Both the position numbers and the translations under genes were made by a program. A stretch of DNA of 15,190 bases from NCBI GenBank assembly GCA_042217545.1, contig JBDGSM010000015.1, positions 1-15,190 of the forward strand. The letters run 5' to 3'. The notes under the pieces were generated by a model. The model was not told the origin of the DNA, did no database searches, and worked only from the letters and a program-made list of their open reading frames with translations. Below, piece by piece: positions 2,214 through 14,896 of this stretch; positions within the stretch are counted from its first letter, which is position 1, and each line of letters starts with the position of its first letter. Source of the stretch: Candidatus Nanohalobium sp. (GTDB lineage: Archaea; Nanohalarchaeota; Nanosalinia; Nanosalinales; Nanosalinaceae).

Positions 2214-2942
2214 ATGGTAGAAGTTCCGAGATGCAAGACCGGAATTCAAGGCCTTGACCAGATTCTGAAAGGCGGTATCCCCGAGGAGCATACTGTAGTG
2301 ATCAGCGGGACTTCAGGAGCCGGTAAGACGACTCTGACCACGCAGTTCCTTTATAATGGTGCCAAGAATCACGATGATAAAGGTATTTACTTCACGTTGG
2401 AGGAGCCTGCGAGGAATATCGTCGAGACCAGTAAAAACTTTGGTATGGATTTCGAGAACGATGAAGGTGTCGCAGGAAAGGTTAAGTTCCATGAAGAGCT
2501 GAACCTGATGCGTGAGGGCTCAGGAGGCGAAGTTTTCGAGCCCGACAGGTTTATAGAGGCCTTCAAGAGGCAGATCGAGGAGTTTGATCCTGATCGTGTC
2601 GTTCTTGACTCGATTACTAAGTTTGCGATGGTTTTCGACTCTTCGCCTTTGAGGAGGGAGAAAGTCTCGGAGATCGCCCAGTTCCTCAGGGAGCAGCAGT
2701 GTACAGCTGCTCTTCTGGCTGAGATACCTTATACAGGCGGTGAGAGGCAGGTTTCAAAGTACCAGATCGTGGAGTTCGTGGCTGACGGAGTCATCTTGCT
2801 GGGTAATGAGAGGACGGAGTCCTCCAGGACAAGGACGCTGGAAATCTTCAAGATGCGTAGAACAGATCACTCATCCGACATCCATCCGTTGAAGATCACG
2901 AGCAACGGTATAGTGACGTATCCAAACCAGACAGCTTTCTAG
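2214..2942 (+). CDS. Single-domain KaiC-like ATPase with intact motifs
   Basis: TGIQGLDQILKGGIP, Walker A GTSGAGKT, catalytic LEE, Walker B VVLDS, VADGVI, KMR. Confidence 0.9.
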   Translation: MVEVPRCKTGIQGLDQILKGGIPEEHTVVISGTSGAGKTTLTTQFLYNGAKNHDDKGIYFTLEEPARNIVETSKNFGMDFENDEGVAGKVKFHEELNLMREGSGGEVFEPDRFIEAFKRQIEEFDPDRVVLDSITKFAMVFDSSPLRREKVSEIAQFLREQQCTAALLAEIPYTGGERQVSKYQIVEFVADGVILLGNERTESSRTRTLEIFKMRRTDHSSDIHPLKITSNGIVTYPNQTAF

Positions 2943-3679
2943 GAGCCCGTGGATTCAAGGAGAGCACCTATCACGATACAGAGAGCGCCTATCCCAAACA
3001 GTTTTCCGAAATCCTTCCAGTGCGCCCAGTCAAAGTGCTCCCTGTATACAGCGGCCGACATAAGTGAACCCGAGACACCTGCCAGAATGAAACCGGTCAT
3101 CTCAAAAGTTGCGTGCGGAACATAAGCCAGCGGCGGCGCAGTACCTTTTGTACCGAGGAACGCAGCTGACAGACCGTCCGGAAGCTTGTGAAGAAGATTC
3201 GCCAGGAAGACTCCGAGTACGGAAGCGTTCCAGCTCAAGATAAAAGCCCCTGCAGAACCTGTCACGAACGAAACCAGAGTGATCGCCGCGAAGACACCGA
3301 TATTGTTCACCAGCAGGAATAGAAAGAAGTTAGGTGAAATAGCGGACCCAGAGATACCTGCTCTCAGAGCCTGTGCAGCGAAAAAGTCAGGCTTGAAGTA
3401 TCCAAGACCCAGGAAAGCAACTGCCTGGCCCAGGAAAAGTGCGAAATAACCTGCGATCTCAGGTATATGCGGCGCCCTATCCGCCTCATCGTCAAAGAAG
3501 AAACTTGTCAAAGGATACACAAGAGGAATAGCCGCGAAAATCACGATCAGCATATCGGCCTCCCGCGGATAAATCACCCCCGCGACAATGTAGGCTGCGA
3601 TCACCGAACAAACCCCGAGAAGAGCCAGCAACGGATAATTCCTGTGCTGCTCCTCACGCAGGATCAACTCCGGAAACAT
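2939..3679 (-). CDS. SpoIIM (DUF95)-like multi-pass membrane protein
   Basis: Several hydrophobic helices; NN...NASVLG...PHATFE pattern; stop overlaps the convergent KaiC stop (CTAG). Confidence 0.75.
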   Translation of the reverse strand: MFPELILREEQHRNYPLLALLGVCSVIAAYIVAGVIYPREADMLIVIFAAIPLVYPLTSFFFDDEADRAPHIPEIAGYFALFLGQAVAFLGLGYFKPDFFAAQALRAGISGSAISPNFFLFLLVNNIGVFAAITLVSFVTGSAGAFILSWNASVLGVFLANLLHKLPDGLSAAFLGTKGTAPPLAYVPHATFEMTGFILAGVSGSLMSAAVYREHFDWAHWKDFGKLFGIGALCIVIGALLESTGS

Positions 3680-3738: not shown

Positions 3739-4848
3739 TCAGGGATTAATATCGAACTCGAAGTTCTCCTCGATATAGGCCTCGACCTCATCCTCAACGT
3801 CCTCACGCTTTCTCTGATGCTCTTTCAGAAACTCCTCCAGTCTATCCTTCGCGATCTGCTTCAATTCTCCTGAAAGCATCTCGCCGCTTTCATACTCCTC
3901 TCTGATCCTTGCCAGTTCTTCATCGTCCTCTACCAGGTGGTACGCCAGTAGTTCAAATACCATGTCCTCTTCGATATCCGCGCCTTTCTCCCTATGTTCC
4001 TCAAGAGAGTCCTGGCCGCCGGTCTTCGCCTGATCGATCTTCTTCTTAGCATCTTCGATACTGTCGGTCAACGCAATATAGCTCTTCGGATTACTGCTCG
4101 ACATCTTTCCGCCCTGAAGGCCTCTCATGAACTTGTTGTACGTTGAAGCAGGCTTGATGAAGTCCTGGTCCCTGTACTTGCTTGCGACGTCACGTGTCAA
4201 ACGGATATGAGGATCCTGGTCGACACCGACAGGCACTACAACAGGTTTAGGCCCTCCGTTCTCCGGAAACTGAGGCCTGAGAATATCCGCGTACTGAACC
4301 TGGGCTGCCGACATCTTTCCTGGTTCCGCGCTTCCGTAGGTTGCCTCCATCTCGTTCTGTGTAATATATCTTCCAAAAGTTGTAGCTCTCGCCAGGTGGT
4401 TGTTTCCCGCTTTAGACTGGAAGTAGAAATCTACGTTCTCCAGATCGATTCCGAGCGCTACATAGTTCTTCAGGTATTCCTCAACTACAAGTTCCCTGGC
4501 TTCTTCTAGCGACATGTCCCGCGTGTTGTAGGCCTCGATATCTGCTGCAGCTATAGTTACTTCTGCGCCCATCTCCTGGTACATCTTGATCTGGTCGACG
4601 ACGCATTTATGGCCGAAATGGAAGACTCCTGAAGGCATGATACCTGTCATCATCGCAAATTCTTCATCTTCCTCCTTCGCATCCAGGAAGTCGTCAAGGC
4701 CTCTGTGGCCGAAGATGATGCCTCTGCGGATGAACCTGTGATCCGGAAGTCTATCAGCTACTTCCGCGATCGGTTCGATTCCGAACTTCTCCATTTTCTC
4801 AGAGTAGTTTCCGACCTCTACATCGCCCCAGGGATCAATATCTGCCAT
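3739..4848 (-). CDS. trpS: Tryptophanyl-tRNA synthetase (archaeal type)
   Basis: DPW N-terminus, TGIMPSG..HFGH (HIGH), GVDQDPH, KMSSS. ATG 4848 is preceded by the SD GAGGTGA. Confidence 0.95.
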   Translation of the reverse strand: MADIDPWGDVEVGNYSEKMEKFGIEPIAEVADRLPDHRFIRRGIIFGHRGLDDFLDAKEEDEEFAMMTGIMPSGVFHFGHKCVVDQIKMYQEMGAEVTIAAADIEAYNTRDMSLEEARELVVEEYLKNYVALGIDLENVDFYFQSKAGNNHLARATTFGRYITQNEMEATYGSAEPGKMSAAQVQYADILRPQFPENGGPKPVVVPVGVDQDPHIRLTRDVASKYRDQDFIKPASTYNKFMRGLQGGKMSSSNPKSYIALTDSIEDAKKKIDQAKTGGQDSLEEHREKGADIEEDMVFELLAYHLVEDDEELARIREEYESGEMLSGELKQIAKDRLEEFLKEHQRKREDVEDEVEAYIEENFEFDINP

Positions 4849-4858
4849 ACTGAAAACT

Positions 4859-5629
4859 TCACCTCTCACCTTTTAATTCGTTTTCAGGTTTACGACCTCT
4901 GAAACCCAGGATCTCATCGTATCCATCCGTCGACATCAGAACCGGGTAAAAGGCCTCCTCCGCATTCAGTTCTTCATCCTCGTTCTCAGCGTACTTCTCA
5001 CCTTTCTCGACTTTCTCGAAGTTCTGGGCCAGGAACTCATAGTTTCCAGGCACAGCTTCGTACATCTCGAAGATCTCAGGCCTTTCCACAGGTTTCTCGC
5101 GGTCGATAGCGCCAAAGCAGGCCAGGAAGTTCAGTAATACTTCGTAGGCGTTTTCCTCAGCTTCCTCAGTGCCGACCTCGCCCACCTCAACAGAAACTGC
5201 GTCAAGATACTTCTCGACGCTGTCCTTATCAAGCGGGGCGACATCCACAGCTCTATCGACCCCGGGAGCGGTGACAAGATCTTCATCAACTGTATTGACG
5301 AGGCAGAAGGCCTCGTCGAACTCCGTCATGGAGTGTATAGTCAGCGATTTGAGGCCTTCAAGCTCCTCCATAAGTTTTGCGGCGAGTCTCTCCTCGTGGC
5401 TGTTGCTTTCAGGATCTCCGGGGAAGCAGCGGTTCAGATCAGTATCTATGAATCTTTCTCCCTGTTCCCTCGCTTCTTCGTTCGCCACTATGAACTTGAC
5501 AGGCTTCTCCAGCTTGAAATTGCCCTCCAGGAATCTTTCTACCGCTTTACTGCCGCAGACCTCGTCTCCGTGTACTGCTGCGACCACTGCTATCTCAGGT
5601 TCGCCAGGACCTTTCTCCACGACTCTCAA
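4859..5629 (-). CDS. Succinylglutamate desuccinylase/aspartoacylase (M14-like Zn hydrolase), paralogue 1
   Basis: HGDE, DLNRCFPG, IHS, SVEVG. TTG start with SD AGGAGGTGA overlaps the trpA stop. Confidence 0.85.
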   Translation of the reverse strand: MRVVEKGPGEPEIAVVAAVHGDEVCGSKAVERFLEGNFKLEKPVKFIVANEEAREQGERFIDTDLNRCFPGDPESNSHEERLAAKLMEELEGLKSLTIHSMTEFDEAFCLVNTVDEDLVTAPGVDRAVDVAPLDKDSVEKYLDAVSVEVGEVGTEEAEENAYEVLLNFLACFGAIDREKPVERPEIFEMYEAVPGNYEFLAQNFEKVEKGEKYAENEDEELNAEEAFYPVLMSTDGYDEILGFRGRKPENELKGER

Positions 5630-6390
5630 GACCTCTCACCTCCTACGGTTTCAGAGACCTCTGAAGCCAGTTCTTCGACTCCTTCAAGGCCTTCATCAGT
5701 GTATGCATCGATTATAGCGCTTCCCATGATGACGCCGTCCGCTCCTGCGTTCAGGGCTTTCTCTGCGTGTTCGGAGCTGGAGATCCCGAAACCTATGCAT
5801 CTTGGGACGTCGAGGCCTTCCGTTTTCTCCATCAGCTCCTCTGTCTTATCCGAGAAGCTGCTCCTTGCTCCTGTAGTTCCTTTGACTGCGACGATGTAGG
5901 CGAAGCCTTGGGTCAGCTCTCCTATCTCTTCTACACGTTCCTCTGGCGTGTTCTGTCCTATGAGGAAGATCTGGTTCACGTCCGTATCTAACTCGCCGAT
6001 CTCCTCCCCGTACATCTCAGGCGGCATGTCAGGAATGATGAGGCCGTTCACCCCTGCTTCTTCCGCAGCCTCAAAGAAGGCCTCGTATCCGTACCTCCTG
6101 ACTGTATTCGCATACGCAAGCAGAACAATGGGCGTGTCTGGGAACTCCGAGGCAACCTCCAGCACGTCGTCCGCAGTTATATCGTGTTCAAGGGCTTCCA
6201 TATCTGCTTCTGTTATCGTAGGGCCGTCAGCCATCGGATCGCTGAAAGGAACACCTAACTCGACGATATTAGCCCCGCTATCGACCAGAGTCTCTACTAT
6301 CTCCTTCGAGGTTTCTTTGTCCGGGTATCCTCCGACTGTGAAAGGCATGAAGGCCTCTCCATTTTCAAATACTTCTTCAATCGAAGTCAA
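5626..6390 (-). CDS. trpA: Tryptophan synthase alpha subunit
   Basis: [38 protein letters not shown] start with SD GGAGGTGG inside the trpB 3' end. Confidence 0.96.
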
Positions 6391-7531
6391 GGCCTTCCAC
6401 CTCCGCTACAGTATGCATATCCTTGTCTCCACGGCCTGAGAGGTTTACAAGGATCTTGTCGTGTTCATCCGCCAGTTCCTTTGCGAGGGCGACTGCGTGA
6501 GCAGATTCCAGTGCCGGTATGATGCCCTCGGTTTCTGATAGATCGGTGAAGGCCTCCATCGCTGCTTTGTCGTTCACTGCGAAGTAATCTGCTCGTTCCA
6601 TCTCGCTGAGGACGGAGTGTTGCGGTCCTACTCCCGGGTAGTCGAGGCCTGCGGAGACCGATTCTGCTTCCTCTATATTTCCTGAGTCGTCCTGCAGGAA
6701 GTAGGATTTGAATCCCTGGAAGATTCCGACCTCTCCCTGCGATATGCTGGCTGCGTTTCCTTCTTCGTTGCCTCCGGCCTCTGCTCCATACATCGCGACT
6801 TCTTCGTCTTCTACGAATTCGTGGAAGAGGCCTATAGCGTTAGATCCTCCTCCAACACATGCGACAAGTGCATCCGGAAGCTCATCTTCTCTTTCGAGGA
6901 ACTGTTCGCGGGCTTCCTCTCCTATGACCTGCTGGAAGTATCTCACTATCTCCGGGAATGGATCAGGGCCTACTACACTTCCTATCAGGTAATGCGTGTC
7001 TTCGGAGTTCGCGACGTAGTCCTGTATTGCTGCGTTGACCGCATCCTTCAGGGTTTTCGCGCCCTGGTCGACAGGCTTAACTTCCGCACCGCATTTCTCT
7101 ATCCTGAGTGCGTTCATCTTCTGTCTTTCCACGTCTTTCCTGCCCATGTAGATCTCTACCTCCATATCGAAGTAGGCACCGACCATCGCTGTTGCGATAC
7201 CGTGCTGCCCAGCTCCTGTCTCTGCGATGAGTCGTTCCTTTCCCATCTTCTTCGCTAGCAAGGCCTGACCCAATGTATTGTTGATCTTGTGGGCGCCGCC
7301 GTGCAGAAGATCCTCTCTCTTCAGGTAGATCTCTGCTCCGTATCTTTCTGAGAGGTTTTCGGCCCTGTAGACTGAGGTAGGCCTTCCTGCGAACTCTTTC
7401 AGGTGTTTCTCGAACTCTTCTCTGAATTCCTCGCTGTTTCTGGCTTCCTCGAACTCTTCTTCCAGTTCTTCGAGTACCGGTACGAGTAGTTCTGGTACGT
7501 ATTTTCCGCCGAACTCTGTCATCTGTTCCAT
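6377..7531 (-). CDS. trpB: Tryptophan synthase beta subunit (TrpB1 type)
   Basis: [19 protein letters not shown] (PLP Lys), [26 protein letters not shown] 7531 preferred because SD AGGTGA overlaps the upstream TAG; GTG 7543 is an alternative start. Confidence 0.97.
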
Positions 7532-7543
7532 CTTTCCCTTCAC

Positions 7544-7924
7544 CTAGAACTGGTACATCCCAGGGTTTTGTTCCTGTTGGTTTCCTTCCAGCACCTGTTC
7601 AGCTTTCTCCACGAGACCCAGGTTCGAGGCCTGATCCTCAGCCACGGAAGGGAAGTTCTCCGCGTAGAACTCGTTGATAGCTTCCTCAGCGTGCTCCATC
7701 GCGAGGTAGATCTCGGACTCCTGCTCGTCAAGCATCTCCTCGTTCAGTTCCAGGTCTATGAACTCCTCATTCAGAACACCGTCGTAAGGAGCGACTTCAA
7801 CCGTTCCTATCTCCTGGTCGAGGCCTTCGTGGTAGAGAGAAAACTCCTTTGCCCCTTGATACTTTGGGCTTAAAGCTGTACTGTTATCTAGAGGTTTTGC
7901 GTGTATGTTTCCAAAAGCGTCCAC
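7544..7924 (-). CDS. Unknown acidic, Trp-free protein; probably the +1-frame part of a 141-aa product starting at ATG 7970
   Basis: Halophile-like composition; abuts trpB; annotated start is a GTG lying inside the repeated cassette; frame is +1 relative to leader 7884-7970. Confidence 0.7.
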   Translation of the reverse strand: MDAFGNIHAKPLDNSTALSPKYQGAKEFSLYHEGLDQEIGTVEVAPYDGVLNEEFIDLELNEEMLDEQESEIYLAMEHAEEAINEFYAENFPSVAEDQASNLGLVEKAEQVLEGNQQEQNPGMYQF

Positions 7925-7970
7925 CCTTCTGCAGGGATTCGGTCGTAGCGTGTTGTGTGTCGTAGCTCAT
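7884..7970 (-). CDS. Leader ORF L1, 28 aa: MSYDTQHATTESLQKGGRFWKHTRKTSR
   Basis: First ATG after the BRE/TATA at 8005-8018; single Trp codon in TTT-TGG; motif shared with L2 and L3. Confidence 0.65.
   Translation of the reverse strand: MSYDTQHATTESLQKGGRFWKHTRKTSR
7905..7931 (-). repeat. 27-bp direct repeat, copy 1 (CAGAAGGGTGGACGCTTTTGGAAACAT)
   Basis: 26/27 identical to 8231-8257; core also present at 13011-13029 (+). Confidence 0.95.
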
Positions 7971-8004
7971 ATCTTTCACGTATCCCAATAATACGCAGGA
8001 AAAT

Positions 8005-8018
8005 TTTAAATACCTTTC
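8005..8018 (-). promoter_or_regulatory. BRE/TATA (GAAAGG-TATTTAAA) for the trp unit
   Basis: Consensus-like archaeal promoter about 35 nt upstream of ATG 7970. Confidence 0.6.
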
Positions 8019-8182
8019 AGGCCTCAACAGAGGCTATAAGCGGCATAGATAGCTCTAGAGGTTTTAATTCTGGCAGAAATTCCTGAAAAAGATGTAGGTA
8101 GGCCTTTCAGTTGGTCAGCCATGAGAAATTTTTCACTGAAGCGATCTGGAGATAGGTACGGCTCAGGTGATATGTCTTCGCA

Positions 8183-8263
8183 TCAGGCCTTGGAGCCTGC
8201 TGCTCCTGCATCTCTTCCATGCGGAGAGAGATGTTTCCAAAAACGTCCACCCTTCTGAGCCAT
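8183..8263 (-). CDS. Leader ORF L2, 26 aa: MAQKGGRFWKHLSPHGRDAGAAGSKA (+1 frame open to TGA ending at 8107)
   Basis: ATG places the repeat in the same frame as in L1; the only repeat mismatch (CGT/CGC) is synonymous. Confidence 0.5.
   Translation of the reverse strand: MAQKGGRFWKHLSPHGRDAGAAGSKA
8231..8257 (-). repeat. 27-bp direct repeat, copy 2 (CAGAAGGGTGGACGTTTTTGGAAACAT)
   Basis: 26/27 identical to 7905-7931. Confidence 0.95.
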
Positions 8264-8287
8264 AAAAAGTTAGTAGGGGGTGAACTG

Positions 8288-9049
8288 TTAAAATTCTTTC
8301 TTCTTCCCTTTGAACCCGATCATATCCTCATAACCATCGGTTGACATAAGGACCGGACAGAAACTTTCTGAGGCCTTTTTGACGTTTTCCCTGTTTTCGG
8401 CGTATTTCTCTCCTTTTTCGAGTGGTACGAAGTTCTCCGCCTTGAATTCGTAGTTTTCTCCTTTTGCTCTGTCGTAGACCTCGAAGACTTCTGGTTCCGA
8501 TCGATCGTATTTTTGATCTATTACTCCTTCAGCGGCGAGTAAGTTGAGCAGTATCTGGCAGGTCATCTGCGCTGATTGCGGGCTTGCGTCAGGTCCTGCC
8601 TCGACAGTGACGCCGTTGAGGTGGTTGATCATTCCTCCCTCCACGTAGGAGATCTCGACAAGGTTCTCCATGCAGGTATGTCTCGCCAGTTCGTATGTTT
8701 CCTCCGTAAGGCCTGAAACGATGGCGAAAGGAGTTTTCGGAGACTCAGAGGAATGGAAGTCTATTACTTTGAGGCCTTCAAGCTCCTCCAGAAGCCTTGC
8801 CGCCAATCTCTCCTCATGACTGTCACTATCCCCATCTCCCGGAAATGCATGGTTCAGATCTCTGTCTATGTAGCGTTCTCCTCTGTAGAAGGCTTTTTCG
8901 TTGGCAAGGATGAACTTTACCGGTTCGTTGAGGCCTATCGCTTCTCTCTTGAACCTTTCGAAGGCCTTGAGACCACAGGGTTCGTCTCCGTGGATACAGG
9001 CCACGATAGCTATTTCCGGCTCTCCCTGTCCCAGGACTTCTGTCTTCAT
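8288..9049 (-). CDS. Succinylglutamate desuccinylase/aspartoacylase-family hydrolase, paralogue 2
   Basis: HGDEPCG, DLNHAFPG, DFHS, TVEAG, PVLMSTDGY; alignable end to end with 4859-5629. ATG 9049 has SD CAGGTGAG. Confidence 0.88.
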   Translation of the reverse strand: MKTEVLGQGEPEIAIVACIHGDEPCGLKAFERFKREAIGLNEPVKFILANEKAFYRGERYIDRDLNHAFPGDGDSDSHEERLAARLLEELEGLKVIDFHSSESPKTPFAIVSGLTEETYELARHTCMENLVEISYVEGGMINHLNGVTVEAGPDASPQSAQMTCQILLNLLAAEGVIDQKYDRSEPEVFEVYDRAKGENYEFKAENFVPLEKGEKYAENRENVKKASESFCPVLMSTDGYEDMIGFKGKKKEF

Positions 9050-9144
9050 TTTCTCACCTGTTGAAGGCCTTTTCCTGGTTTTCGAGATGTTTCGAGGATG
9101 TGAAGTCGTTTTTGTGGTAGTTGGATGTTTGTTCACCTTGTAGT

Positions 9145-9170
9145 GCAGAGCTCAGGATAGTTGGCTCTGC
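9145..9170 (-). promoter_or_regulatory. Stem-loop directly after micropeptide A
   Basis: GCAGAGC/GCTCTGC 7-bp stem with a 12-nt loop; overlaps the palindrome GCTTCTAGAAGC (9169-9180). Confidence 0.45.
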
Positions 9171-9172
9171 TT

Positions 9173-9250
9173 CTAGAAGCTATAGAAATAGTAGAATCCT
9201 GTAAAATGTGAGAAACTCAAAACGAGCTGATATAGAACTGGACGAGTCAT
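9173..9250 (-). CDS. Aromatic-rich micropeptide A, 25 aa: MTRPVLYQLVLSFSHFTGFYYFYSF
   Basis: AAGGAGG upstream; ATGA overlap with the preceding small ORF; homologous to 11575-11643. Confidence 0.6.
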   Translation of the reverse strand: MTRPVLYQLVLSFSHFTGFYYFYSF

Positions 9251-9318
9251 AGTATATCTCGGGCCTCCTTGATCGCTTTCTCTTTACGTTCTGGATCCGA
9301 ATCCATTTTCCCGATCAT
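9247..9318 (-). CDS. Small ORF or gene remnant MIGKMDSDPERKEKAIKEARDIL
   Basis: Protein-like charged helix; its TGA overlaps the ATG of micropeptide A. Confidence 0.3.
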   Translation of the reverse strand: MIGKMDSDPERKEKAIKEARDIL

Positions 9319-9340
9319 TATATCGCCGTAGAAGGCCTTC

Positions 9341-10267
9341 CTACTGTTTCAGGTCTAGCTCTTCTCTGGCCAGTTCTACTGCTTCTTCATAGCTATTCAG
9401 GGCCTTCACCGTGTCCTTCGGTGAGTGATAGATGTCCAGTACCTCGTGGTACTCCGATGCCACGAACTTGACTTTGTCCTCGTAGCCCTCAGTATTCAGG
9501 ACTATAGCTTTCTCCACAATCTCAGGATTTTCTATGACTTTCTGGGAGTTTCTCCCCAGCGAATCTGCAAGGAAGATTTCTTCTGCTCCCTTTATCTGCT
9601 CGATGTATTCATCCTCGAACCTTCTGTAACCGTAGCAGTGGTACGGTTTTTCCTGTGATATTTCCTCAGCTCCAGCAAATACTACAAGGTTCTCCTCCAG
9701 GTCCAGTTCGTCCAGTAACTCAATAATGAGGCTGACCGTGAACCCATTGTCAATGAAGCCTCCCCAGGTGCTGTCGTAATGAGTCAAAATTATCCTGTCG
9801 GGATCCTCCTCGTTTCCTACAAGGATATTCCGGGATTCATGGCTGACCCATTCGACCTCGAGATAACCCTCGACTTCATCCGCTCTTAATACTTTTTCCA
9901 CGTCTTCGGGGCTGATGGCGACTGAAGGAGCCTCGTAGAAGTTCGGAACTGAAATTCCGTCCGCATACGGGTTAAAGTTGATGTTAGGCCTGTTCATAGA
10001 TCCCTGACCGTTCAAGATAGAGTTTACCAGGGCCTTGGACTCGATCTTTCCAGATTCAAGGCCTGAAGGCAGACAACGAATCTCTTCTCCGTCGGCTTCC
10101 AGACCCCAGTCCCTGAAATCCGGTACGAGTATCTGAAAGGCCTGAGTACTGTAATCATATTCAGATATCTCTTCCTCTATCAGTTCCGCTGCTTTTTTCT
10201 CGTCTTCGAGCTGTCTCGGGGCCAGATCCGCGAGCCTTGAGGCCCTCTGTACAACTTCTTCTTTCAT
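9341..10267 (-). CDS. M28-family Zn metallopeptidase
   Basis: THYDS, IDN, AEE, ADSLG and YHSPKD metal-ligand motifs. Confidence 0.85.
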   Translation of the reverse strand: MKEEVVQRASRLADLAPRQLEDEKKAAELIEEEISEYDYSTQAFQILVPDFRDWGLEADGEEIRCLPSGLESGKIESKALVNSILNGQGSMNRPNINFNPYADGISVPNFYEAPSVAISPEDVEKVLRADEVEGYLEVEWVSHESRNILVGNEEDPDRIILTHYDSTWGGFIDNGFTVSLIIELLDELDLEENLVVFAGAEEISQEKPYHCYGYRRFEDEYIEQIKGAEEIFLADSLGRNSQKVIENPEIVEKAIVLNTEGYEDKVKFVASEYHEVLDIYHSPKDTVKALNSYEEAVELAREELDLKQ

Positions 10268-10276
10268 AGTTTTTAT

Positions 10277-11413
10277 TCACCTCAGAGCCATGTTAAGGAT
10301 TTGCTCTGTGACGTCCTCGAAACTCTCGGACCTCAGATCAGCTGACTGGATCTCTTCCCTTTTCTGCTGTGAAGGGTAGAGATTGAGGACCATGCCGTTT
10401 TTCTTGAGGCTTGAAGAGCCCCCGAACCTTGTGTCGTTCAGTTCCTCCATCACATAGCTGGGAACTCTGGCGTGGTAATCATCCTCAGAAGATACATCTA
10501 TGAACGGGAAGCTTTCGAGGCCTTCCTGATGAGCCTGTCTCTCAAGCTCATCAGTATTCTCTGTCCTGAACTTTCCGTTGTCAAGGCCTCTGAGCATGTA
10601 ACCGACATCCTGATGAACTGCTGAGGGAAAGACCAGCGTTTCATAGTTGACCTCCGGAGGGAGTATACCCTCCTGTGAGGCCTCTTCCGTGGATAAAGTG
10701 ATGTCTCTGCGGTCGTCCAGCGATTCGTAGGTCTCTGTCCTCGGATCGTACTTCATTCCTACAATTTTGCCATCTGCGTCCTCGTATCCCAGGACTTCAG
10801 GCTCTTGTCCATGTTTAATCATCTGGTCTATCATGCTTCTCTGGATCTCTGTGAAGTCTCCTCTCGTCTGGACCAGAGGCGTCTCCAGGCTATCGTGGAG
10901 TTCTCTCAGGTTCGAGGCCTCGGCATCCGCTCCAAGCATCTCCTCTACGATCTGATCCGAGTTATCTCTCAAATTAACTTCGTGGGAACCGACGCTGTAA
11001 CCGTCCTGAATATCAGTCACCTGAGTAGACCAGAGGCCTTCCTCGGTAGAAACCACTGGCATCGCGTATCCTCTCTTCTCCGCGTTCCGCCCGTACATCT
11101 TATCTGTCAGAGGAGCACCTACGACGCTGTAATTTTCTATTTCTCCCTGTTCCTGCAGTTGATCACCTAACATACTTGCTACTTCCTGCATAGATATCTG
11201 CTCGACTGTCGAAGCCGGCTGCTGACGCGGGATAACGAAAGTGTAATCATCTTCAGCGTCCATCACCCCCGCATCCTCATAGGCCTCACGCAACCAATCT
11301 GCATCAACCTCTTCAAGGCCTATGTTATCGTAGTGCTGATCTATGAGAGCTTCTACATCTTCCTGTTTTGACTGTTCGTAGACCTGTTCGAACTCTGAGG
11401 AGTTTCTTATCAT
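10277..11413 (-). CDS. Hypothetical acidic protein, 378 aa
   Basis: Long ORF with halophilic composition, 9 nt from the M28 gene; no family recognised. Confidence 0.8.
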   Translation of the reverse strand: MIRNSSEFEQVYEQSKQEDVEALIDQHYDNIGLEEVDADWLREAYEDAGVMDAEDDYTFVIPRQQPASTVEQISMQEVASMLGDQLQEQGEIENYSVVGAPLTDKMYGRNAEKRGYAMPVVSTEEGLWSTQVTDIQDGYSVGSHEVNLRDNSDQIVEEMLGADAEASNLRELHDSLETPLVQTRGDFTEIQRSMIDQMIKHGQEPEVLGYEDADGKIVGMKYDPRTETYESLDDRRDITLSTEEASQEGILPPEVNYETLVFPSAVHQDVGYMLRGLDNGKFRTENTDELERQAHQEGLESFPFIDVSSEDDYHARVPSYVMEELNDTRFGGSSSLKKNGMVLNLYPSQQKREEIQSADLRSESFEDVTEQILNMALR

Positions 11414-11520
11414 GTATGATCAACTTGAAGACCTTTACGTATCAGAGTCTCTCTTGAAGATTTTTTGCATTGTTTTTGCGTACGTGATGCGTTGAAGGTA
11501 TAGTCTTGTGTGTTAAACAT
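11410..11520 (-). CDS. Small basic ORF, 36 aa: MFNTQDYTFNASRTQKQCKKSSRETLIRKGLQVDHT
   Basis: Strong SD CAGGTGA 5 nt before the ATG; ATGA overlap with the 378-aa gene, which has no clear SD of its own. Confidence 0.55.
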   Translation of the reverse strand: MFNTQDYTFNASRTQKQCKKSSRETLIRKGLQVDHT

Positions 11521-11574
11521 AGATATCACCTGTTAAGATTCGAAGCCAACCGTGGAAAACTTATGGTTCACTTC

Positions 11575-11643
11575 TCAGAACATAAAGCTATAGAAATAGC
11601 TGCCGCTAAACCAGAAACCTGTAGAATTCCGGAAACCGTTCAT
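11575..11643 (-). CDS. Aromatic-rich micropeptide B, 22 aa: MNGFRNSTGFWFSGSYFYSFMF
   Basis: First ATG after a BRE/TATA; 9 of 22 residues are F/Y/W; homologous to micropeptide A. Confidence 0.6.
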   Translation of the reverse strand: MNGFRNSTGFWFSGSYFYSFMF

Positions 11644-11685
11644 GTTCTCTGGCGCGGACACAGTAAACTATCCAGTGAGCAACTG

Positions 11686-11700
11686 TTTTTTAACTTTCGG
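11686..11700 (-). promoter_or_regulatory. BRE/TATA (CCGAAAG-TTAAAAAA)
   Basis: Consensus-like archaeal promoter about 43 nt upstream of ATG 11643. Confidence 0.55.
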
Positions 11701-11740
11701 TCTACTGACCTACAGAAGTAAGAAAAAGTGAATATTCGAT

Positions 11741-12910
11741 TTAGTTTTTCAAGGCCTCTACCGCTGCCAGTTTCTCCCCGCTCATATACCTTACGAAGGC
11801 TCCTCCGGCTATGGATACATGTGAGAAATCCTTGATTTCGTGGTCAAACCTGTGTACAAGCGAGGAAGTGTGTCCTCCTCCTATGACCGTGAAGGCGTCG
11901 TTCCCTGCCATCGCACCTACTACTGCTTTACTTCCGTTTTCATGTCCCTGGTCGAACGCTCCCATGGGGCCTTTCATCACGACTGAATCGGCGTCCTCTA
12001 TGGCTTTCACGTATTTTGCCTGGGTCTTCTCCCCGATATCCCAGGTCATCTCATCCTCCGGAACTTCTCCGACTTCGTAGTTGCCGGAACGGGTTCTGAC
12101 GTCCTCGGGGATCATGATCTTTTCGCCATGGTTTTCAAGCATCTCTTTCAGCTCCGAGGCCTTGGAGTCGAATCCTTTCTCTTCTATCCAGTTTTCCTTT
12201 TTTCCAAGGCTTTCTCCCTGTATTGTCAGCGCTAGTTCTCCCGGTATTCCTCCCAGGAGGACTTTGTTGACGTCTTCGATCATTTCCCCCATCATGCCAA
12301 TTATATCCGAGGGCTTCTCGCCTCCGAGAACCAGTAGGCCTTCGTCGAACTCGTCCCGCACTTTTCCACAGCTTTCAAGCTCTCTCTGCATGATAGGTCC
12401 TGCGTAGCTGTCGATAAGTTCGGTAAATCCTACCATGGAGCCATGGCTTCTGTGTGCAGCGGAGAATGCATCGTCGACGTAAACGTCGAAGTAACAGACC
12501 ATGTTCTGTACAAAGAAATCCTGTGAGTGTTTCTCCGGCGAGGCGTTCTGCAGTTCCTCTGAGAGAAATCTTATGTTTTCAAGCATGCAGAGGTCCCCGT
12601 TGCCCATTGAAGCTATAGCATCGCCGAGGTGGGGGCCGAAAAAGCTCTGTACAAAGTTGACGTCCTGACCCAGGGACTCGGAAAGAAGCTGTGCATGTTC
12701 CTCAAGTGAAAGAAAGTCCTTCCTTGCAGGCCTTCCCTGGTGTGCCACGATCATCGTCCTGGCACCTGCGTCACTGAGCTCCTTTATGGTTTCAAGGTAT
12801 CTCTTGAACCTGACTGTCTTCTGGGGCTCCCCGTCCTCTACAGGAAGATTTAGATCAGTCCTCAGGAGTACGTTTTTGCCCTCAAGTTCAGCATCTTCAA
12901 TAGTATTCAC
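11741..12910 (-). CDS. pgk: Phosphoglycerate kinase
   Basis: LRTDLNLP, AHQGRP, LENIRF, DAFSAAHR, GGGHT, HVSIAGGA. Likely start GTG 12910 (MNTIEDAELEGK), with TATA-like ATTAAAAA at about 12946-12953. Confidence 0.95.
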   Translation of the reverse strand: MNTIEDAELEGKNVLLRTDLNLPVEDGEPQKTVRFKRYLETIKELSDAGARTMIVAHQGRPARKDFLSLEEHAQLLSESLGQDVNFVQSFFGPHLGDAIASMGNGDLCMLENIRFLSEELQNASPEKHSQDFFVQNMVCYFDVYVDDAFSAAHRSHGSMVGFTELIDSYAGPIMQRELESCGKVRDEFDEGLLVLGGEKPSDIIGMMGEMIEDVNKVLLGGIPGELALTIQGESLGKKENWIEEKGFDSKASELKEMLENHGEKIMIPEDVRTRSGNYEVGEVPEDEMTWDIGEKTQAKYVKAIEDADSVVMKGPMGAFDQGHENGSKAVVGAMAGNDAFTVIGGGHTSSLVHRFDHEIKDFSHVSIAGGAFVRYMSGEKLAAVEALKN

Positions 12911-12999
12911 AGGCAACCACTGTAATACGATGTAATACTTCCAGGTTTTTAATGTTACCACAGAGGAAGAGCTTTTAACGTTCAAGGCCTCAAAACTTG

Positions 13000-13056
13000 A
13001 TGATACCAATGAAAGGTGGACGTTTTGGACTGCAGTCAAATGCAGTCGCACGGTAG
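13000..13056 (+). CDS. Leader ORF L3, 18 aa: MIPMKGGRFGLQSNAVAR
   Basis: TTTTAA at 12973-12978 fits a leaderless start at ATG 13000; shares KGGRF with L1 and L2. Confidence 0.5.
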   Translation: MIPMKGGRFGLQSNAVAR

Positions 13057-13067
13057 TATAACGAACC

Positions 13068-13129
13068 CCGAAACTTCTGTGAAGTTTCTCATGACCAGAA
13101 ACTCTGCGAGTTTCGGATTTTCAAAATCC
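13068..13129 (+). promoter_or_regulatory. Cluster of inverted repeats upstream of glyS, possible RNA switch
   Basis: GAAACTTC-TGT-GAAGTTTC (13070-13088), GAAACTC-TGC-GAGTTTC (13098-13114), GGATTT-TCA-AAATCC (13115-13129). Confidence 0.6.
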
Positions 13130-13171
13130 TCTAGTTCTGACTATAAAAATTTCCAGTTCGGTGCTTGATCT

Positions 13172-14896
13172 ATGGACAATCTTACTGAAAAGATAGCCGA
13201 GCTGTCGAAAAGGCGTGGTTTCTTCTTCCAGAGCAGCGAAGCTTATGGTGGCGTTTCAGGTTTCCAGACCTTCGGACCTGAAGGCGCAGAAGTCAAGAGA
13301 AAGATCGAAAACTCGTGGAGAGAAACTTTCTCCCGCTCACTCGGGCACAGAGAGATAGAAGCTCCGACAATCATGCCAGAGGAGGTTTTCAAGGCCTCAG
13401 GCCATCTGGATACGTTCGACGACATGATAATCGAGTGTCCGGAGTGCGAGAACTCTCATAGAGCCGATCACCTGGTAGAGGACAATACAGAGATCGAGGA
13501 AGCTGAATCTTTCTCACATGAACAGGTGGAGGCCTTGATCAAGGAGCACGACCTGGTCTGTCCGAGCTGCGGCGAGAGCCTCTCCGATGTACCGGTTGAG
13601 GATTTCAACCTGATGTTTGAGACCTCGATAGGTCCTGGAAGCGGCGAACCAGGCTATCTCAGGCCTGAAACTGCACAGGGAATCTTCGTGGAGTTCCCAC
13701 GGCTGAAAGAATACGCACGGAACCAGTTGCCTTTCGGTATCACCCAGATCGGAAAGGCCTACAGAAACGAGATAAGTCCGAGAAAAGGCCTTGTCCGTGT
13801 ACGTGAACTGACTCAGGCGGAGCTGGAGCATTTCATCGATCCTGAGGAGGACGAGCCTCCGATCGAGGATGTTGAACACGTGGAGGTCAAGCTGTACTCC
13901 CGTGAGGAACAGAAGGCTGAAGATGGAGAGGTAGTCAAGATAACGGTCAGAGAGGCCGTTGAAGACGAAGTCGTCGAGTCTGACTGGATCGCGTACTATC
14001 TAGGTATCGCGAAGCAGTGGTACGAGTCGATCGGCGTGGACATGGACCGGTTCAGGTTCAGGCAGCATCAGAACGACGAGCTTTCTCATTACGCCAGCGA
14101 TTGCTGGGATGCAGAGGCAGACACAAGCGCACCCGGTGCCCAGCCCGACTGGATCGAGATAACCGGTTTCGCCTACAGAGGCTGTTACGACCTCAAGAAG
14201 CACAATAAGTACTCCCGCGAGGACTATACTATCTTCAAGGAGTACGACGAGCCGAGGACAGTAGAGAAAAACACGGTCAGCCCAGACATGGGCTACTTAG
14301 GCCCTGAGTTCGGTGATAAAGCGGGCGAGATTAAAGAAAAGCTGGAGGAACTGGCAGAGGAGAATCCTGAGGCCTTTGAAGCCGACAAGGTCCTGGTCGA
14401 GGTCGATGGCGAGGAGTTCTCGATTCCGGAGGAGAAATGTAACTTTTCAGTCGACGAGGTTACTGAGAACGGTGAGCGCATTCTTCCTCAGGTTGTCGAG
14501 CCTTCGTTCGGTATCGACAGGATTGTCTACACGGTTCTGGCCCATGCTTTCGATGAGGACGAGGTGAACGGCGAGGAACGTACAGTTCTACGCCTGAATG
14601 AAGAGGTCGCACCGACTGAAGTAGCTGTCTTCCCTCTTATGGACAAGGAAGGCCTCGGCGAGAAAGCTCGTGAAGTAGCATCTATGCTGCGGAACGAAGG
14701 TTTCTCCGTCAAGTACGATGACACAGGCAACATCGGTAAGCGTTACAGGCGGCAGGACGAGGTCGGCACACCTGTCTGCGTAACGATTGATTACGAGACA
14801 CTGGAGGACGAGCCCGAGACCGTGACCGTCAGGGACAGGGATTCAACGGAACAGAAACGTGTAGAGATCGATGATCTAGCTGAGCGCCTGAGATAG
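13172..14896 (+). CDS. glyS: Glycyl-tRNA synthetase (alpha2, archaeal/eukaryotic type)
   Basis: KRRGFF, ASGH, YLRPETAQG, YRNEISPR, EPSFGIDR, IGKRYRRQDEVGTP anticodon-binding domain. Confidence 0.97.
   Translation: MDNLTEKIAELSKRRGFFFQSSEAYGGVSGFQTFGPEGAEVKRKIENSWRETFSRSLGHREIEAPTIMPEEVFKASGHLDTFDDMIIECPECENSHRADHLVEDNTEIEEAESFSHEQVEALIKEHDLVCPSCGESLSDVPVEDFNLMFETSIGPGSGEPGYLRPETAQGIFVEFPRLKEYARNQLPFGITQIGKAYRNEISPRKGLVRVRELTQAELEHFIDPEEDEPPIEDVEHVEVKLYSREEQKAEDGEVVKITVREAVEDEVVESDWIAYYLGIAKQWYESIGVDMDRFRFRQHQNDELSHYASDCWDAEADTSAPGAQPDWIEITGFAYRGCYDLKKHNKYSREDYTIFKEYDEPRTVEKNTVSPDMGYLGPEFGDKAGEIKEKLEELAEENPEAFEADKVLVEVDGEEFSIPEEKCNFSVDEVTENGERILPQVVEPSFGIDRIVYTVLAHAFDEDEVNGEERTVLRLNEEVAPTEVAVFPLMDKEGLGEKAREVASMLRNEGFSVKYDDTGNIGKRYRRQDEVGTPVCVTIDYETLEDEPETVTVRDRDSTEQKRVEIDDLAERLR

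Follow-up and report, generated by a model that had tools for sequence, protein, structure and literature searches.

To our knowledge, the way in which archaea match the levels of their aminoacyl-tRNA synthetases to tRNA charging is not known. T-boxes, which control such genes in Gram-positive organisms, are bacterial, and no case of archaeal leader-peptide control of synthetase genes was found in those parts of the literature that were searched. Frameshifting as both sensor and effector is described for prfB, antizyme and the erm leaders in the relevant passages of one review (PMC5009743). In prfB, a short zero-frame open reading frame (ORF) contains a stimulator resembling a Shine-Dalgarno (SD) sequence, placed a few bases before a U-rich P-site codon that allows re-pairing; the A-site codon is slow when the regulated function is scarce, and the output lies in the +1 frame (PMC5009743). 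For hungry-codon frameshifting with useful trans-frame products, the corresponding passage of that review stated in 2016 that "no examples are known". A review of archaeal recoding (PMC8211752) mentions SD-like stimulators and cites hungry-codon papers, and its passages on the topic contain nothing on synthetase leaders. The present work concerns a leader cassette found three times in a stretch of 15,190 nucleotides (nt) from Candidatus Nanohalobium sp. (assembly GCA_042217545.1, contig JBDGSM010000015.1), here called the window, and recurring across the Nanohaloarchaeota. The cassettes are very probably amino-acid-specific leader sensors read by the ribosome.

Sensor codons and the genes behind them

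The motif AARGGTGGACGYTTT occurs three times in the 15.2-kb window, at 7914-7928 (-), 8240-8254 (-) and 13012-13026 (+). Shuffled windows hold 0.01 copies on average, and 0/200 shuffles give three. Each copy sits in a short ORF with an in-frame ATG of its own:

L1, minus strand: ATG 7970-7968, then AAG GGT GGA CGC TTT TGG, stop 7886-7884
L2, minus strand: ATG 8263-8261, then AAG GGT GGA CGT TTT TGG, stop 8185-8183
L3, plus strand: ATG 13009-13011, then AAA GGT GGA CGT TTT GGA, stop 13054-13056

All three encode KGGRF, with synonymous codon differences only (AAA/AAG, CGT/CGC). These sequences and their start codons had been described in an earlier, sequence-only reading of the window, together with the trp genes behind L2 and L1 and glycyl-tRNA synthetase (GlyRS; other synthetases are abbreviated alike) behind L3, and all were confirmed.

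The source genome (G000; other G numbers denote related genomes) measures 1.03 Mb in 82 contigs, with 49% G+C, and contains six copies of the exact 12-mer GGTGGACGYTTT. Of 41 related Nanohaloarchaeota genomes, 28 carry the same 12-mer, with 98 sites in all; it is present in 22/24 genomes of the same family and in 44/70 genomes of the phylum, with up to nine exact copies per genome. A reversed-pattern control was almost absent from the 41 relatives. The copies mostly lie in short ORFs, where the sequence-only reading had proposed to look for them: at 92/98 sites an in-frame ATG opens an ORF that does not exceed 50 codons. Five others lack such an ATG (G009 C8 14576, G014 C22 17587, G017 C1 272235, G019 320612 and G034 C2), two of them being second cassettes of tandems, and one (G005 C2) lies inside a long ORF. 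The frame-0 stop follows 21-90 nt past the motif start in 91 of the 92, the remaining one being cut by a contig end. In about half of 91 aligned sites, the ATG stands immediately 5' of the AAR codon and is preceded by a conserved CA. TTTAA or ATAAAA boxes were seen by eye ~30-37 nt 5' of the leader ATGs in the sequences inspected, and the leaders would therefore be leaderless or near-leaderless mini-ORFs. The copies occupy orthologous positions before the same genes across genera.

When the downstream ORFs were named by NCBIfam, 66/92 sites proved to have an amino-acid-specific gene. The codon after TTT matches that gene in 65 of these 66, over 11 amino acids (W, G, T, S, Y, V, C, K, F, H and I), each of which shows a match. 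In 100,000 shuffles none reached 65, the maximum being 23. The correspondence between codon and gene, put forward in the sequence-only reading from three copies, thus holds across the relatives, and the idea of a reusable cassette combining an SD-like stimulator with a sensor codon was right. The matched sites are distributed as follows:

Gly sensor: GlyRS, 9 sites
Ser sensor: SerRS, 14 sites
Thr sensor: ThrRS, 7 sites
Tyr sensor: TyrRS, 6 sites
Val sensor: ValRS, 6 sites
Cys sensor: CysRS, 4 sites
Lys sensor: LysRS, 1 site
Phe sensor: PheRS alpha + beta, 1 site
His sensor: operon ending in HisRS, 1 site
Ile sensor: threonine deaminase IlvA, 3 sites
Trp sensor: TrpRS and/or trpBA operons, 13 sites

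The sensor codons are ordinary ones in G000 (GGA serves 39% of Gly, TAC 80% of Tyr, ATC 53% of Ile and AAG 56% of Lys). Frame 0 carries one sensor codon, and codon runs occur only in the +1 ORFs of the Ile and second-Val types. Looser searches in G000 added leaders of ValRS (GGTGGCCGTTTT GTA) and LysRS (GGTGGATGTTTT AAG) and one of a branched-chain type.

The SerRS leader of G000 starts ATGAAAGGTG and then enters a run of N (contig C26, L001 5991-6090), which makes its sensor codon unreadable. Another N run interrupts the TyrRS gene of G000 (L001 3247-3300 or beyond). A match to GGAGGGCGTTTT GAA on contig C24 lies antisense to coding sequence and looks like chance.

An RNA signal and a hidden +1 frame

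Several codons fixed in the cassette are infrequent in G000, where TTT accounts for 21% of Phe, GGT for 18% of Gly and CGT plus CGC for 19% of Arg. GlyRS genes were examined in 12 same-family genomes that lack the exact motif; seven of these carry the variants GGTGGATGYTTT, GGTGAATGTTTT and GGTGGCTACTTT, with GGA or GGG as the next codon in every case, and no leader was found before the GlyRS genes of the other five. Among 76 named GlyRS loci, 19/21 of the Nanohaloarchaea type carry GGTG[GA]A[CT][GA][TC]TTT GGA, a pattern present in 0/55 loci labelled Halobacteria. The peptides encoded at those 19 loci are KGGRF, KGGCF, KGECF, KGGYF or KGEYF. Across the variants, GGTG, a G or A, four bases, TTT and the sensor codon are invariant. 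In the GlyRS leaders C or Y can replace R, E can replace G, and N or T can replace K, with the bases of GGTG and TTT kept. As judged from these comparisons, the conserved signal is mainly an RNA one (GGUGR, 4 nt, UUU), the peptide KGGRF counting for less; conservation of the peptide only was ruled out by codon usage and residue variation. The 16S rRNA of the organism ends in GGAUCACCUCCA, whose duplex with GGUGG or GGUGA is worth -7.3 to -9.1 kcal/mol, and the spacing from this SD-like box to UUU is 4 nt. The sequence-only reading had offered an SD-like stimulator, a stalling peptide or both; the first survives as this RNA signal and the second does not. Its further idea, that L3 might be a "pre-shifted" copy of L2, fails, GGA or GGG following TTT at nine exact-motif GlyRS sites, seven variant sites and 19 named loci (some from the same genomes).

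One record, L141, is labelled as a Colwellia metagenome-assembled genome. It encodes a GlyRS of the Nanohaloarchaea type (84% identity), accompanied by the cassette (NGECF-G), and the species label looks wrong for this contig. Two other records noted alongside it, L153 and L154, are labelled Halorientalis.

The +1 frame, reached when the first base of the sensor codon is skipped, stays open and shows a second regularity. At 53 direct sites a synthetase, IlvA or trpB is the first gene downstream. In 48 of them the +1-frame stop falls between -16 and +20 nt from the gene start, including 16 exact ATGA/GTGA overlaps, and in many cases the +1 ORF extends 5-19 nt across the gene start. A stop at the gene start is found in 3/53 for the -1 frame and 0/53 for frame 0. 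At 19 further named GlyRS loci the +1 stop lies at 690-711, the match starting at 701. The five exceptions comprise three IlvA sites, the CysRS site of G032 and the ValRS site of G012, and the last two look like mis-set starts, judged by where the family profiles begin. A -1 frameshift was ruled out, as the -1 frame closes early.

In Trp leaders of the L1 type, the +1 frame continues as the downstream protein itself, of 126 amino acids (aa) in the window, 242 aa in G019 and 471 aa in G001. The sole possible start of its own upstream of the conserved N-terminus is the GTG within the cassette. The +1 products of G000, G012 and G024, and more distantly those of G013 and G004, align from the first residues past the shift site. 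Cascades also occur, in which a second, ATG-less cassette 58 nt downstream stands in the +1 frame of the first (G014, G017), and G011 has a KGGCFW cassette in the +1 frame.

These arrangements are probably the mark of a +1 ribosomal frameshift at a hungry codon, in a prfB-like layout, through which a shortage of charged tRNA would be coupled to translation of the synthetase or operon that it matches. The most likely output, a point beyond the sequence-only reading, is a shift into the hidden frame that ends at the gene start codon. The cassette, its translation signals, the codon-gene match, the RNA-level conservation and the +1 geometry are observed, and from them we infer the slip, the role of the SD-like box and reinitiation. 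A ribosome would read the short ORF, which lies at the transcript's 5' end or close to it, in frame 0 until UUU occupied the P site and the single sensor codon for an amino acid X the A site, with the SD-like GGUGG or GGUGA four bases upstream pairing with the 16S 3' end. With plentiful X-tRNA, X would be decoded and translation would terminate 2-20 codons on, far from the gene. With scarce X-tRNA, the waiting ribosome would slip by +1, tRNA-Phe re-pairing on UUN, and the hidden ORF would be translated. That ORF could take three forms. It may stop where the gene for the X-tRNA synthetase starts, overlapping its start codon (ATGA-type), and lead to termination-reinitiation; it may itself encode the operon's first protein, as with L1 ahead of trpBA-TrpRS; or it may be a longer leader with further X codons at its end (L2, Ile and Val types). 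Translation in the +1 frame would also keep the synthetase RNA covered by ribosomes and so avoid polarity.

Re-pairing on UUU-U after the proposed slip would be complete for the W, Y, S, C and F sensors. The wyosine-synthesis domain PF08608 (Wyosine_form) was found in 0/5 genomes (four complete), with a positive control in three other archaea; tRNA-Phe therefore probably lacks the position-37 modification, which holds the reading frame. RNAalifold, applied to 13 of 14 SerRS leaders, returned no conserved RNA structure (-1.55 kcal/mol, 4 pairs, none compensatory), and this fits a purely translational device.

A number of points weigh against this account. Because the exact 12-mer served as the anchor of the survey, conservation inside it arises partly by construction, the unanchored searches being smaller in extent, and the related genomes are not independent. 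The single mismatch among the 66 is an Ile codon before pheA in G022, and 26/92 sites are without a nameable target, lying at a contig end or before genes of no known family. Gene starts were set to the longest ORF. With a G, V, T, I, K or H sensor, the codon read after the shift would be UUG, UUA or UUC, on which tRNA-Phe keeps 2/3 pairs. In prfB the SD-like box stands ~4 nt closer to the P-site codon, and the wider spacing of the cassette is nearer to initiation geometry; a GTG inside the cassette begins the +1 ORF, so on sequence grounds independent initiation would fit too. The Lys codon is kept with both synonyms (AAA 27, AAG 63 of 91), which SD pairing leaves unexplained and which suggests some peptide-level or tRNA-level constraint on AAR. 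Many synthetase starts have a TATA-like box ~26 nt upstream and a GGTG ~8 nt upstream, both seen by eye, which may mark a leader-independent (basal) transcript or, alternatively, SD-led internal initiation. Finally, in 3/3 IlvA leaders, and in most leaders of the Ile, second-Val and first-Trp types, a gap of 45-190 nt separates the stop of the +1 ORF from the gene. These +1 ORFs end in Ile/Leu runs, in V-K-V-A-V-H-V-H or in a tail of the ..ISSVKNFSW.. type; such ORFs, L2 included, look like a second, attenuator-like stage.

The same observations could be read as a stalling sensor without frameshift, in which a frame-0 pause at the sensor codon would by itself alter downstream expression. The pause would either prevent or allow transcription termination and polarity, or cover the cassette GTG and so silence an independently initiated +1 upstream ORF that occludes the synthetase start. 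The codon-gene match and the translated leader fit such a sensor equally well. Its second route finds a GTG in the +1 frame within the cassette and an overlap with the gene start that could occlude it, but this GTG has no usable SD spacing, at 7 to over 40 nt from the 5' end, and in L1-type leaders it would begin the first protein of the Trp operon, whose start would then be blocked in Trp shortage, opposite to the need. The first route can draw on the hairpins and T4 run of L3 and on the Ile/Leu runs that close Ile-type +1 ORFs, which resemble classical attenuator peptides; set against it are the SerRS leaders, 13 of which share no conserved alternative helices. Neither route explains the invariant rare UUU before the sensor or the ATG-less second cassettes placed in the +1 frame. 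Stalling without a shift is considered unlikely.

If KGGRF were a ribosome arrest peptide of the TnaC, SecM or ErmCL type, acting in the peptidyl-transferase centre with elongation dependent on the incoming aminoacyl-tRNA or free amino acid, one could account for the identical peptide in the three window copies and for the retention of K by both its codons and of R by CGT/CGC. The GlyRS leaders tell otherwise, with non-conservative residue changes where the bases of GGTG and TTT stay, and rare codons are fixed where the peptide would permit AGR, GGA/GGC or TTC. Six residues are too short to reach the exit-tunnel constriction, and leaders of the MK type have made just six at the sensor codon. 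The +1 ORF would have no role. An arrest peptide is accordingly judged very improbable.

That the motif is not read by ribosomes at all, being a DNA operator, a T-box-like tRNA-binding RNA, a mobile repeat or a site of transcriptional slippage at the T run, is hardly credible: strong base-level conservation, the palindromic CTAG of CAAAACCTTCTAG, which could be an operator, and the T4-T5 run adjoining the triplet point that way, against which stand the in-frame ATG and nearby stop at 92/98 sites, a three-base period in the variation, orthologous rather than random loci, the absence of conserved structure and of any Rfam family, T-box included, at E up to 1 (the scan of the window gave just two spurious matches), and, for slippage, a T3-T5 run too short for known polymerase slippage, which would moreover leave the triplet unread.

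With the frameshift retained as the preferred account, its widest form would be a single portable cassette (SD-like box, UUU, swappable sense codon) serving the Nanohaloarchaeota as a general ribosome-read gauge of tRNA charging, with the +1 shift driving matching synthetases, supply operons and genes of unknown function, and with tandem cassettes giving a cooperative response. The evidence tilts slightly in favour of this generalization.

The window leaders and their surroundings

The GlyRS leader L3 and its target are laid out on the plus strand as follows:

12973-12978 (+): TATA-like TTTTAA, 31 nt 5' of the leader ATG, putative promoter of the L3 transcript
13009-13056 (+): zero-frame leader ORF, 15 codons plus TAG stop
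13012-13029 (+): cassette, with AAA, SD-like GGTGG at 13015-13019, spacer, TTT at 13024-13026 and sensor GGA at 13027-13029
13028-13168 (+): +1-frame ORF entered past TTT, 46 open codons, TGA at 13166-13168, 3 nt before the glyS ATG
13028-13047, twins 13070-13088 and 13098-13114, and 13115-13129 with a T4 run (+): hairpins in the +1 ORF
13123-13134 (+): conserved element AAAATCCTCTAG (family consensus YCAAAACCTTCTAG)
13142-13149 (+): TATA-like TATAAAAA, ~26 nt 5' of the glyS ATG, by eye
13160-13163 (+): GGTG, 8 nt 5' of the glyS ATG, by eye
13172-14896 (+): glyS, glycine--tRNA ligase, target of L3 (TIGR00389, E 3e-198)

The position of TTTTAA implies a leaderless or near-leaderless mini-ORF. 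The SD-like box of L3 forms a duplex of -7.3 kcal/mol with the 16S 3' end. The fold of L3 is unexceptional (minimum free energy -42.2 kcal/mol, z -1.25); similar twin hairpins were seen by eye in the GlyRS leaders of G001 and G003 and in the SerRS and TyrRS leaders of G019. TATAAAAA and GGTG before glyS suggest either a second promoter, of basal activity, or an SD sequence from which translation could start internally. The GlyRS is 77-86% identical to named relatives, e.g., those of Nanohaloarchaea archaeon SG9 and Candidatus Nanosalina sp. VS9-1.

The element YCAAAACCTTCTAG usually lies 37-58 nt before the +1 stop and most gene starts, and also directly after L1. Its reading frame is not fixed, and 6/12 pattern matches in G000 are at leaders. 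A role of CAAAACCTTCTAG as a peptide signal was ruled out by its variable reading frame. A tether resembling a termination upstream ribosome-binding site was also rejected, pairing of CAAAACCTTCTAG with 16S rRNA (-10.8 kcal/mol) being no better than the shuffled mean (-10.9 kcal/mol).

L3 and pgk are divergent. The listed pgk ORF, from 13051, has an N-terminal extension without homology, and the true start is probably near 12907-12913; L3 would therefore be intergenic. Between the TATA-like box and the start of pgk lies GTAATAC-N3-GTATTAC (12922-12945, +), which is conserved upstream of pgk in the relatives L112, L117, L118, L123, L125 and L126. The GTAATAC copies form a direct repeat in the window and are inverted in several relatives. 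The element may represent an operator, or else a hairpin at the 5' end of pgk.

On the minus strand, the two Trp leaders stand in tandem before the operon:

8288-8293 (-): TATA-like TTTTAA, putative promoter of the L2 transcript, overlapping the stop of the upstream AstE-like gene
8183-8263 (-): L2 zero-frame leader ORF, 26 codons plus stop, with cassette 8254-8237 and sensor TGG 8239-8237
8107-8238 (-): L2 +1-frame ORF, 43 codons, TGA 8109-8107, second Trp codon 8121-8119, followed by a T5 run at 8090-8086
8055-8065 (-): AAAACCTCTAG element between L2 and the L1 promoter
8004-8012 (-): TATA-like TATTTAAAA, putative promoter of the L1 transcript
7884-7970 (-): L1 zero-frame leader ORF, 28 codons plus TAA, with cassette 7928-7911 and sensor TGG 7913-7911
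7898-7888 (-): AAAACCTCTAG element within the L1 leader ORF
7544-7912 (-): L1 +1-frame ORF, the body of a small acidic protein (126-aa ORF), its stop abutting the trpB GTG at 7543
3739-7543 (-): regulated Trp operon, with trpB 6377-7543, trpA 5626-6390, AstE/AspA-like deacylase 4859-5629 and TrpRS 3739-4869

The order on this strand is thus L2, L1, 126-aa ORF, trpB, trpA, deacylase and TrpRS, and neighbours all abut or overlap. The tail of the L2 +1 ORF is of the conserved ..ISSVKNFSW.. type and recurs in 9-10 first-of-tandem Trp leaders. The small acidic ORF after L1 has no Pfam or NCBIfam match. Genes of the L1 type have no start of their own besides the cassette GTG, at which automatic gene callers would mis-start them.

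Operons with a Trp sensor recurrently carry M20 (ArgE/DapE-type) or AstE/AspA-type deacylases and small acidic proteins. Examples come from 4859-5629 and 8288-9136 (-) of the window and, in relatives, from L049, L057, L064, L067 and L070. Further members of such operons are a GCS2-like ligase (G001) and a GNAT-like protein (G005). The deacylases and their companions may make up a salvage pathway in which tryptophan is released from peptides or from acylated forms.

Most unknown targets behind cassettes gave nothing with Pfam and NCBIfam. Among them are 376-aa proteins behind Ile sensors (L073:1621-2751, L070:879-2009) and a 365-aa protein behind a Phe sensor (L074:672-1769), which belong to no Pfam or NCBIfam family. 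For these proteins the preceding codon predicts a putative role in supplying the amino acid that it encodes.

In several Ile/Val leaders (L073, L070, L090, L086, L054 and G000 C26 46013), GGRF-I is followed, still in frame 0, by a further motif, K-G-G-R-V-L-Q, where Val and Leu codons come after GGR; the +1 ORFs of these leaders end in Ile/Leu runs. The arrangement suggests combined sensing of branched-chain amino acids. Another variant, on contig C8 of G000 (-, ~2730-2330), reads ATG AAA GGT GGA TAC GAT CAT..., without TTT, and is followed by a AAAATCTTCTAG element and a second AAGGGTGGA; the GTG of the latter seems to start an AbrB/SpoVT-like small protein.

Elsewhere in the window, two divergent KaiC-family ATPase genes (1419-2111, -, and 2214-2942, +) are flanked by a small GTPase-like gene (112-1287) and a SpoIIM-like membrane protein (2939-3679). 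No tRNA genes were found in the window. A bacterial promoter and terminator scan was uninformative, the organism being an archaeon.

Comparison with known systems

The cassette family offers a concrete model, with many natural variants, for the control of archaeal synthetases. No published description of it was found in the literature searched, whose coverage leaves most subscription journals outside. The sensor codon labels the genes behind it by amino acid, and this extends to the M20/AstE-type deacylases and small acidic proteins of the Trp units and to the 376-aa and 365-aa proteins. As a small and modular device, the cassette could also serve synthetic biology as an amino-acid-specific translational switch. 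If the proposed mechanism is true, it would be the first natural regulatory use of hungry-codon frameshifting, of which the passages of PMC5009743 on the topic list none, and in its widest form an archaeal counterpart of the bacterial T-box regulon.

The cassette shares with prfB the short zero-frame ORF, the SD-like box and a +1 frame that carries the output; its U-rich P-site codon would re-pair in full before sensors that start with U and in part before the others, and its A-site codon would be decoded slowly when the regulated function is scarce. They differ in what occupies the A site: prfB has UGA, read by its own product, release factor 2, and senses that factor, whereas the cassette has a sense codon (W, G, T, S, Y, V, I, C, K, F or H) and would sense charged tRNA. 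Unlike prfB, the cassette is modular, serving at least 11 amino acids across relatives, and is found in an archaeal, near-leaderless setting; most of its +1 ORFs make no functional protein and end on the start codon of a separate gene. Hungry-codon frameshifting, known from starved E. coli and from yeast Ty1 (CUU-AGG-C), likewise involves a vacant A site and a P-site tRNA that slips by +1. In E. coli it is a starvation error, and in Ty1 a rare tRNA sets a fixed ratio, whereas the cassette has ordinary sensor codons matched to the regulated gene.

T-boxes resemble the cassette as reusable leaders in which a swappable triplet reports the charging of one tRNA and controls the matching genes. A T-box is an untranslated, structured RNA that binds the tRNA, whereas the triplet of the cassette would be read by the ribosome, in a leader without Rfam match or conserved structure. 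Leader-peptide attenuation (trpL, hisL, ilv, and pheM before pheST) also relies on a translated mini-ORF with codons for the regulated amino acid; the cassette, in contrast, has a single sensor codon, no conserved terminator or antiterminator that could be found, and a read-out that would pass through a second frame. In arrest peptides such as TnaC, SecM and ErmCL a conserved peptide is active, whereas in the cassette residues vary and bases are kept. Antizyme and the drug-induced erm leaders use regulated frameshifting as a sensor, in erm within a leader ORF that controls a downstream gene (PMC5009743, in its passages on these systems). Their signals are polyamines and antibiotics, and neither has the codon-gene modularity that distinguishes the cassette.

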